Assembly (NCBI GenBank): GCA_944358945.1
Contig: CALVSH010000002.1
Location: forward strand, 1 to 53,108
DNA from: an uncultured Bacilli bacterium
GTDB lineage: Bacteria > Bacillota_I > Bacilli_A > RF39 > UBA660
DNA: 53,108 bases
Reading direction: 5' to 3'
The notes under the pieces are model-generated. The model was not told where the DNA came from, did not search any database, and worked only from the letters and a program-made list of their open reading frames with translations. Positions 20,635 to 31,288 of this stretch are shown here, piece by piece. Positions within the stretch are counted from its first letter, which is position 1. Each line of letters begins with the position of its first letter. The position numbers and the translations under genes are program-made.

Positions 20635-21119
20635 AATGCAAATAATATAATAATAAGATCAATCGAAGACAAAGACAAAATAAATTATTTAATGAAGAAA
20701 CATTTGGATGTATAGGAACGAATGAAACTCAAAAACCATCAATATATGAAGAAGAAAAAATAGATGTCTGGGAATATCATATTGGAGAATTTGTTATAGA
20801 ACAAAGTCAGATAAATCAAGGATATGGTAGCTACTTATTAGAAACAATTAAATCTTATGCAGACAGTGAAGGATGTAATATATCTTTAGAATGTCCATCA
20901 TCTTCTCAATCATTCTTTTTGAATCATGGATTTAAAAAATCAGAAATCAACTTTAAATACGAAACTCCAAATTATAAAGAACAAACAACACAATCTCCTA
21001 TATTTCTAGATTATGAACAAATAAAAAAAGAAAATGAAGCAGAAGCTCAAAAAAGAATAAAAGAATATAAAAAATTCTTATCATCACAATTAGCCAAAGA
21101 CATATTCAATATGTTATAA
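20635..21119 (+). pseudogene. Frameshifted GNAT N-acetyltransferase
   Basis: GNAT N-terminus (NIIIRSIEDKDKINYLMKKHL) is in one frame and ends at TAG 20713. The rest, including motif A (INQGYGSYLLETIKSYA) and FFLNHGFKK, is in the next frame, open from 20646. The only nearby ATG (20636) is in the third frame and stops after 4 codons. Confidence 0.5.
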
Positions 21120-29718: not shown

Positions 29719-30174
29719 ATGATAAAAATAATTACAGTAGGTAGTATAAAAGAAAAATATTTAAAAGATGCCATAGAAGAATATAAAAAAAGACTAAGTA
29801 AATATACAAAATTAGAAATAATAGAAGTAAAAGATGAAGGTTTATGTCCACCACAACAAGCCATGCAAAAGGAATCAGAAAAGATAAATAAATACTTATC
29901 TGAAAAAGATTACATAATCACTCTAGAAATAGAAGGTAAAGAACTAACATCAGAGGAATTTTCTAAAAAACTAGATGAGATTATGATAAGAAATAGTAAT
30001 ATAACATTTATAATTGGTGGAAGTTATGGAATTGATAAATCAATTAAAGACAAGGCAAAATACCATCTATCTTTTTCTAAAATGACATTTCCTCATCAAT
30101 TATTTAGAGTTCTACTACTAGAACAAATATATAGAGCATTTAAAATCATGAATAACGAAAGTTATCATAAATAG
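29719..30174 (+). CDS. rlmH: 23S rRNA (pseudouridine1915-N3)-methyltransferase
   Basis: SPOUT-fold RlmH (MIKIITVGSIKEKYL ... IGGSYG ... MTFPHQLFRVLLLEQIYRA). ATG at 29719 follows GAGGTG. Confidence 0.93.
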   Translation: MIKIITVGSIKEKYLKDAIEEYKKRLSKYTKLEIIEVKDEGLCPPQQAMQKESEKINKYLSEKDYIITLEIEGKELTSEEFSKKLDEIMIRNSNITFIIGGSYGIDKSIKDKAKYHLSFSKMTFPHQLFRVLLLEQIYRAFKIMNNESYHK

Positions 30175-30184
30175 AGGTAGAAAT

Positions 30185-30553
30185 ATGAAATATCTTAAAG
30201 TGATGGATAATATTAAATCAAATGCTAATCCAAATATAGTTTATAAAATCAATGAAGTAAATGTTGCGCAACATTGAAACAAAAATGCTGAAACTCCAGA
30301 GGAAATGGCAGGATTTAACTTTTCTACAGAAGATAAAATACTAAGATGAAACGCCATTTACGAGGTGATAATTCCAGAAGGAACCGAAGTAAATGAATGT
30401 GAATCACCTTCTACTCCACATGGAGTATTTAGAACTAATAAAATAATAATAAAAAATCCAATAGAAGTAACCGATGAAGTAGCCCTAGACTTGTATAAAA
30501 AATCTGACTTGCCATGGAAGTCATATATTCAAATATTATCTAGCGGCATTTAA
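30185..30553 (+). pseudogene. 122-codon ORF interrupted by two in-frame TGA codons (pseudogene or recoded gene)
   Basis: AGAGGTAG RBS plus ATG at 30185. Single frame through to TAA at 30551-30553, apart from TGA at 30275-30277 and 30347-30349. The track only shows the last 62 codons (30365..30553). Confidence 0.5.
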
Positions 30554-30625
30554 TTATAAAAATACATCATATAAAATTCTAGAAGAAAAAAATAAAAAGT
30601 TTGCAATATGAGAAAGAGGGATAAA

Positions 30626-31288
30626 ATGATAGGTAATAGCTGGGACGAATTATTAAAACAAGAATATCAAAAGGAATACTTTAAAAACTTAATGGATTTT
30701 ATCAAAGAAGAATATAAAACCAAAACAGTTTATCCAAAACAAAGTGAAGTATTTAATGCTTTTCGATATACAGATTTTGACAATGTAAAAGTGGTAATTT
30801 TAGGACAAGATCCCTATCATGGACCAAATCAAGCAGAGGGTTTATCTTTTTCAGTAAGTAATGAAGTATTAAAACCACCGTCATTAAAAAACATTTTTAA
30901 GGAATTAGAAAGTGACTTAGGAATACCATTTCCAAAACATAACTCACTTAAACCCTGGGCCAAAGAAGGTGTTCTACTATTAAATGCAGTTCTAACAGTA
31001 GAAGCACATACACCAACATCGCACAAAAATCATGGCTGGGAACAATTTACAGACCAAGTAATTGAAATTATCAATAAAAAACAAACACCTGTTGTATTTA
31101 TTTTATGGGGAAGCTATGCAAGAGCAAAAAAGAAATTAATTACGAATCCTATACACTATGTTATTGAATCAGCACATCCATCTCCATTTTCTGCATATAA
31201 TGGTTTCTTTGGTAGTAAACCGTTTTCTAAAACAAATGAGTTTTTAAAAAGTAAAGGACTAAAACCAATTGATTGGCGAGTAGAATAA
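30626..31288 (+). CDS. ung: Uracil-DNA glycosylase (family 1)
   Basis: VVILGQDPYHGPNQAEGLSFSV and HPSPFS motifs. ATG at 30626 follows an AGAGGGA RBS. Confidence 0.95.
   Translation: MIGNSWDELLKQEYQKEYFKNLMDFIKEEYKTKTVYPKQSEVFNAFRYTDFDNVKVVILGQDPYHGPNQAEGLSFSVSNEVLKPPSLKNIFKELESDLGIPFPKHNSLKPWAKEGVLLLNAVLTVEAHTPTSHKNHGWEQFTDQVIEIINKKQTPVVFILWGSYARAKKKLITNPIHYVIESAHPSPFSAYNGFFGSKPFSKTNEFLKSKGLKPIDWRVE

Follow-up and report, generated by a model that had tools for sequence, protein, structure and literature searches.

Under genetic code 4, which is used in the Mycoplasmatales and the Entomoplasmatales, the UGA codon specifies tryptophan. Natural low-level readthrough of UGA as tryptophan has reportedly been encountered in Bacillus subtilis. 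A further situation involves a tRNA-Trp(CCA) whose anticodon stem is limited to four base pairs and which was found capable of reading UGA when tested in E. coli (PMC13092985). Such tRNAs are associated with a lower use of UGA as a stop codon, and the 4-bp form is the only tRNA-Trp of about 6.5% of the standard-code bacteria (PMC13092985). A strict 'Blastocrithidia-like' subclass was defined as lacking A9C and G24A (PMC13092985). Ordinary bacterial pseudogenes arise by nonsense mutations together with small deletions, the decay of reduced genomes being deletion-biased.

The locus described here lies in a 53,108-nt stretch of DNA (the window) from an uncultured Bacilli bacterium, where a 122-codon frame located directly downstream of rlmH is interrupted by two TGA codons. 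A preliminary description of this DNA considered a young pseudogene, a gene acquired from a code-4 donor, or a UGA readthrough used to throttle expression. With ordinary pseudogenes the locus shares the existence of intact orthologs at the same position, several independent lesions, deletions at short direct repeats (a TTATC tandem and runs of A), a stop codon made by a GC to AT transition, further decay within the species and outright loss in sister species. Nothing essential differs, the only oddities being the AAC that follows both stops and the presence of TGA at one of the two tryptophan positions (W55) in two other species. With the code-4 organisms, the host shares a low GC content, a small genome, membership of the class Bacilli and TGA at tryptophan positions in one frame; it differs from them by an RF2 with its frameshift site, by the TGA stop of about 10% of its long ORFs, by the failure to find a tRNA-Trp(UCA) and by the TGG present at other conserved tryptophan sites. 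Compared with natural UGA readthrough, the locus has no functional downstream product and the genome no general use of TGA at tryptophan sites. With these readthrough cases it shares UGA stops at tryptophan positions and a host tRNA-Trp(CCA) in which the 27:43 top pair is unpaired and position 24 is A, but this A24 places the tRNA outside the strict 'Blastocrithidia-like' class (PMC13092985).

It is highly probable, from the alignments presented below, that positions 30185-30624 correspond to a recently inactivated, multi-lesion pseudogene of an accessory gene of about 185 residues situated between rlmH and ung, an ordinary example of an already known kind. The two TGA codons are a product of ordinary gene decay and not of recoding.

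A coding remnant between rlmH and ung

The features of the locus are collected in Table 1. The ribosome-binding site, ATG 30185, TGA 30275, TGA 30347, TGG 30515 and TAA 30551 announced in the preliminary description were all found again in the sequence, and the TGA-AAC context reported for both stops was confirmed. An in-frame scan between ATG 30185 and TAA 30551 detected neither TAA nor TAG; the chance that 122 codons of 30% GC DNA escape these two stops is about 5e-4, as roughly estimated from base composition. When TGA is read as tryptophan, the resulting protein of 122 residues (P0001) matches 379 database proteins (best E value 2.6e-74), so the frame 30185-30553 is considered to be a real coding remnant and not a chance opening. 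These 379 proteins have a typical length of 182-198 residues.

Table 1. Features of the rlmH-ung locus of the window, with the standard-code marker prfA
Feature	Position	Strand	Remarks
rlmH, upstream neighbor, intact, 151 aa	29719..30174	+	PF02590
Shine-Dalgarno-like AGAGGTAG	30173..30180	+	Kept from the dead gene; overlaps the rlmH stop TAG 30172-30174
Whole pseudogene, ancestral ATG to ancestral TAA	30185..30624	+	DNA alignment with intact L005/P0003
Start codon ATG of the P0001 frame	30185..30187	+	
Lesion 1, TGA at W31	30275..30277	+	TGG AAC in relatives; G to A transition (codon table, alignments); followed by AAC
Lesion 2, 12-nt deletion with TGA at its junction	30347..30349	+	GGTTACTAAGAG missing after 30347; followed by AAC
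TGG of the P0001 frame	30515..30517	+	
Lesion 3, 5-nt deletion of one tandem TTATC copy	between 30535..30536	+	Frameshift; DNA alignment
Out-of-frame remnant encoding LAAFNYKNTSYKILEEK	30537..30586	+	Frame 1; ancestral residues ~122-138, compare YLAASNYKNTSYKILEEK of P0003
Premature TAA	30551..30553	+	Not the family stop; premature because the 5-nt deletion of lesion 3 shifts the frame, and reached only in this way
Lesion 4, 101-nt deletion	between 30586..30587	+	Within A-rich repeats; DNA alignment
Ancestral 3' end remnant, LQYEKEG + TAA	30601..30624	+	Frame 2; identical in relatives; ancestral TAA still readable at 30622-30624
ung (uracil-DNA glycosylase), intact, 220 aa	30626..31288	+	PF03167
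prfA (RF1)	40382..41452	+	Ends in TGA; standard-code background

The relatives that possess the intact gene display a nearly identical Shine-Dalgarno sequence (AGAGGTGA in contig L005). Downstream, the ORF mechanically attributed to ung takes as its start ATG 30608, which lies within what is left of the dead gene; the relatives start at the equivalent of 30626. The true start of ung is therefore probably ATG 30626, which gives a protein of 220 residues as in these relatives.

The homologs bear tryptophan at the positions of both stops. W31 and W55 are invariant in an alignment of 13 sequences, and in an alignment of 90 sequences W31 is again invariant while W55 is retained in at least 90%, which bears out the qualification of the two positions as tryptophan-like. 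The AAC common to both stops is a coincidence, an asparagine codon being next in both cases: directly after the tryptophan at 31 (WN), and after the arginine and glycine removed by a deletion at the second position (RG|N).

Four lesions in the window copy

The reference used to define the lesions is contig L005, which encodes the 185-residue protein P0003 in a frame that is open under table 11, in the gene order MBL-rlmH-gene-ung. DNA alignment with this intact copy reveals four disabling lesions in the window copy. At the second lesion, the AGA TGG TTA CTA AGA GGA AAT of the relatives has become AGA T|GA AAC, and the second TGA would most simply have been created by the junction of the 12-nt deletion itself. 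Two-step origins are possible, either by a TGG to TGA substitution followed by a codon-exact deletion, or by slippage between CTAAGA repeats followed by a G to T change. This deletion takes out the conserved residues L56-L57-R58-G59, among which R58 and G59 are invariant, at the end of a helix spanning residues 49-58 in an AF2 model. In the protein alignment, the WLLRGNT of the relatives thus faces W----NA in the window, and the divergence is complete beyond residue ~118. About 65 C-terminal residues are lost or out of frame. A search of the genome with P0003 recovers residues 1-124 and 123-144 in two frames with two TGA codons, and it found no second copy of the gene.

The ORF had been presented as otherwise intact and devoid of frameshifts, and its appearance as different from generalized decay. 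Both statements proved wrong: compared with the homologs, the copy carries a 5-nt frameshift and deletions of 12 and 101 nt, and this accumulation of a frameshift and two further deletions is generalized decay. The option of a young pseudogene born from two TGG to TGA transitions was essentially right as far as the pseudogene is concerned; a plain TGG to TGA substitution accounts for the first TGA alone, the second standing at a deletion junction. A peptide of at most 30 N-terminal residues would be produced from such a gene. The ancestral 3' remnant contains GAGGG, the ribosome-binding site of ung, ahead of ATG 30626, and the last 25 nt of the dead gene may have been kept because this motif serves ung.

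Reality and age of the lesions

All four lesions are common to two contigs from other samples, L003 (ERZ28614464) and L004 (ERZ17292903). Because these two further metagenome assemblies carry identical lesions, an assembly error can be dismissed on sequence grounds. Over 2.8 kb, the identity of L004 to the window amounts to 98-100%, and this contig is for this reason assigned to the same species. The broken allele, carried by three independent assemblies, is thus regarded as common or fixed within the species. The decay is still under way, L004 having lost a further 46 nt by deletion.

An artefact of sequencing or assembly, behind which the real genome would possess TGG codons and an intact gene, would agree with the fragmented state of this metagenome-assembled genome (102 contigs, 69% complete). 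It could also call upon L109, a contig of 553 nt in which a window-like rlmH end (97.3%) is joined to an intact gene resembling that of the related genome G003 (99.7%). L109 may, however, stem from another strain, from recombination or from a chimeric assembly, and the same TGA codons and deletions were obtained in three assemblies from different samples and with different assemblers, which makes an artefact most unlikely.

About 19 substitutions, 7-8 nonsynonymous and 11-12 synonymous (dN/dS 0.13-0.17), separate the surviving frame of the pseudogene from the intact copies of G003 and L005. Since this ratio is still low, relaxed selection being not yet visible in the substitutions, it indicates that the inactivation is recent and that most of the divergence was built up under selection. 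The ribosome-binding site and the start codon of the pseudogene are intact, a point that counts against a reading as decay.

The identity between the window and the G003 and L005 sequences reaches 92-97% over positions 30100-30900 and falls to 75-90% in the flanking rlmH, MBL and distal ung regions. The corresponding dS values are 0.17-0.19 in this patch and 0.7-1.2 in the flanks. This contrast suggests a recent recombination between species at the rlmH-ung locus. Elsewhere in the window, a stop-to-stop frame of 157 codons (20646-21119) with GNAT-like motifs (QGYGSYLLETIKSYA) lies without a proper start in a 570-nt gap between long ORFs and may represent a second gene undergoing decay.

Genetic code of the host

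The source genome is a metagenome-assembled genome of 1.30 Mb with a GC content of 29.8%. It contains prfB, whose product (RF2) possesses the SPF motif and whose reading frame includes the programmed +1 frameshift site GGAGG TCA CTT TGA C (L002:2085-2160, minus strand); the search for prfB advised in the preliminary description was thus positive, and the gene is present in 21/21 genomes of the genus. TGA is the stop codon of 86 of the 850 long ORFs genome-wide. The statement that the rest of the window is plainly standard code was substantiated by its 48 ORFs, four of which end in TGA and in which all 62 tryptophan codons are TGG.

Conserved tryptophan sites were surveyed by comparison of the source genome with a relative, of which 400 kb (G011:C2) were used, over 93,060 aligned codons and considering only the interior positions of non-overlapping ORFs. 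TGG occupies 516 of the 575 conserved sites in the source genome, and a genuine in-gene TGA occupies none of the 575, the remaining TGA matches being located in leaders or low-complexity frames. Frames split by TGA are not enriched either (21, versus 73 for TAA and 55 for TAG). Only tRNA-Trp(CCA) was found, without a UCA form, among the 23 tRNAs recovered in this 69%-complete genome, and no tRNA-Sec was found in the same set. The standard code is used by this host, and TGA is a stop codon. A code-4 host was rejected on the basis of prfB, of the usage of TGA as stop and of the survey of tryptophan sites. Selenocysteine recoding of UGA was discarded as well, the homologs having tryptophan, and not cysteine or selenocysteine, at both positions.

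The same data bear on the proposal of a gene received from a Mollicutes-like donor using code 4, in which the two TGAs would be original tryptophan codons. Both do align with an invariant tryptophan, and for the short contigs L003 and L004 the gene callers adopted TGA as tryptophan, the only reading under which these contigs yield their database proteins. The closest copies nevertheless belong to the same genus and to the same rlmH-ung locus, with up to 96% amino acid identity to P0003 and 94% nucleotide identity to the window. These nearest relatives (92-96% identical) are open under table 11 and carry TGG at both positions, as established by the comparison of codons that the preliminary description had recommended, and 80/80 family copies from other species likewise have TGG at both positions and read tryptophan there under table 11. 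Moreover, the second TGA stands on a deletion junction and prfB is present in all 21 genomes of the genus. A code-4 origin, whether of the host or of a donor, is refuted by prfB, by the use of TGA as stop, by the tryptophan survey and by the TGG codons of the 80 copies; any residual chance of such a donor is negligible.

Repeated loss of the gene in related species

The distribution of the gene was surveyed in 20 other species of the genus (21 genomes with the source genome, G000). An intact copy is located between rlmH and ung in five of these 20 species. In a sixth species without in-frame stops (G020), the copy is joined to a P-loop NTPase domain. At the same locus, the G007 copy (L016) combines a TGG to TGA change at W55 with three small indels, namely deletions of 1 nt and 4 nt and an insertion of 1 nt. 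The sole lesion of the divergent, 185-codon copy of G014 (L014:1480-2037, minus strand) is a TGG to TGA change at W55; when this allele was sought in other samples, the nearest full-length proteins were only 90% identical. No detectable copy is present in 11/20 species.

Outside the genus, 75 of 80 loci have neither rlmH nor ung nearby. Broken copies also occur there, in L098 (TGC to TGA, TCA to TAA and TAC to TAA) and in L077 (frameshift). The three in-frame stops of L098 (2501-3070, UMGS1672) are all due to C to A changes, in a sequence where just 15 nt differ from an intact relative, L040. Because it is patchy, missing or variously broken across relatives, the gene appears to be a dispensable, often-lost accessory gene of uncharacterized function. 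In the window, it would be disappearing through the GC to AT, deletion-biased decay of a small gut Bacilli genome (~1.3-1.9 Mb).

According to the strength of the transition and GC to AT bias that is assumed, a single nonsense hit has a 1-7% chance of being W55 to TGA. The recurrence of this change in G007, in G014 and possibly in the ancestor of the G000 copy exceeds expectation and is suggestive, as a post hoc observation on two to three events. In G007 and G014, it could be due to coincidence, to a mutational hotspot or to a tolerated leakiness of UGA.

The tRNA-Trp of the host and the readthrough of UGA

In the tRNA-Trp(CCA) of the source genome (C52:7762-7835, L116:1501-1574), an A27·C43 mismatch tops the anticodon stem, above the pairs T-A, G-C, G-C and T-A, which leaves a 4-bp stem and a 7-nt loop with the anticodon CCA. 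Position 24 is an A in our own numbering (D stem GTTA/TAAT), as is position 9. At least 15 genomes of the genus share this tRNA with 100% identity. Beyond the genus, the 27:43 mismatch is also retained in sister genera and in parts of the family, and in one sister genus it has survived a compensatory change at 28:42. A normal 27:43 pair is present in most of the other class members sampled. Partial copies of the tRNA-Trp (positions 1-37, 1-57 and 30-74) lie close to the full gene in G003:C10, G003:C47, G006:C10, G008:C41, G012:C5, G016 and G018:C18, and look like attachment-site remnants of integrated elements.

Such a tRNA lends some substance to the proposal that low-level UGA to tryptophan readthrough by tRNA-Trp(CCA) maintains a functioning but throttled gene. 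The only tRNA-Trp found combines A27·C43 with A24 and is conserved in the genus, and tRNAs of this kind were reported to read UGA in the E. coli test (PMC13092985). TGA also recurs at W55 in G007 and in the otherwise open G014 copy, and a trace of a 122-residue product is possible. The window copy, however, lacks LLRG, changes frame at codon ~118 and misses a further 101 nt, so that no family-like protein could result. With two UGA codons in series the loss would also be compounded, the host possesses an RF2 autoregulated through a UGA-dependent frameshift site, none of the 575 conserved tryptophan sites of other genes is TGA, and the 4-bp tRNA represents a common background in about 6.5% of the standard-code bacteria (PMC13092985). 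The throttling readthrough put forward in the preliminary description cannot rescue the window copy because the downstream reading frame is destroyed, and in no other gene does TGA occupy a conserved tryptophan site; this explanation is judged very unlikely.

Some leakiness of UGA is nevertheless plausible in this host. A broader consequence can be imagined, in which leaky reading of UGA by the 4-bp-stem, A24-containing tRNA-Trp, the only one of this bacterial family, would make TGG to TGA changes hypomorphic instead of null, and TGA-at-tryptophan alleles of weakly selected genes would drift or tune expression down. This extension is improbable on the present analysis. If it were true, the three species with TGA at W55 (G000, G007, G014) would be accounted for, and the copy of G014, open elsewhere, would retain a low level of expression.

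The protein family

The pseudogene and its intact homologs have no family match in Pfam, NCBIfam, PHROGs or PADLOC. A sequence profile search of the PDB yielded nothing below an E value of 0.03, and Foldseek returned no match in the PDB (best E value 0.19, TM 0.24). The AF2 model of P0003 (md3583ca41d99) has a pLDDT of 94.4 and displays a beta-rich N-terminal domain of ~100 residues followed by a helical C-terminal domain. W55 and the deleted LLRG belong to the helix 49-58, and the lost C-terminal part of the window copy comprises most of the helical domain. The model resembles predicted proteins of giant viruses (Mimiviridae) designated as 'ankyrin repeat', DUF4116 or L26 (Foldseek E ~1e-8, TM up to 0.65); these matches to predicted structures are uninformative on function.

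Fusion of the family domain, on its C-terminal side, to a P-loop NTPase or kinase-like domain with the motif GESGSGKS was observed in many species (L015:910-1992, minus strand; L028, L051, L052, L054, L082 and others). The fused domain gives weak AAA_18, AAA_22 and zeta-toxin matches, those to AAA_18 and AAA_22 being below the Pfam cut-offs. Such fusions hint at a role that depends on nucleotides. Other members of the family carry PF10020. Several metagenome-assembled genomes hold at least two family copies, often close to contig ends.

Implications

A frame that is intact except for two TGA codons at tryptophan-like positions can pass for recoding. Gene callers did translate short contigs of the broken allele with code 4. 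Alignment with intact orthologs exposes plain decay where a single frame hints at recoding. Beyond this caution, the locus gives access to a large uncharacterized protein family of gut Bacilli, endowed with a confident predicted fold but without a match among solved structures. The lineage itself, a group of gut Bacilli in which the 4-bp-stem tRNA-Trp is the only one detected, may constitute a natural test case for the leakiness of UGA.
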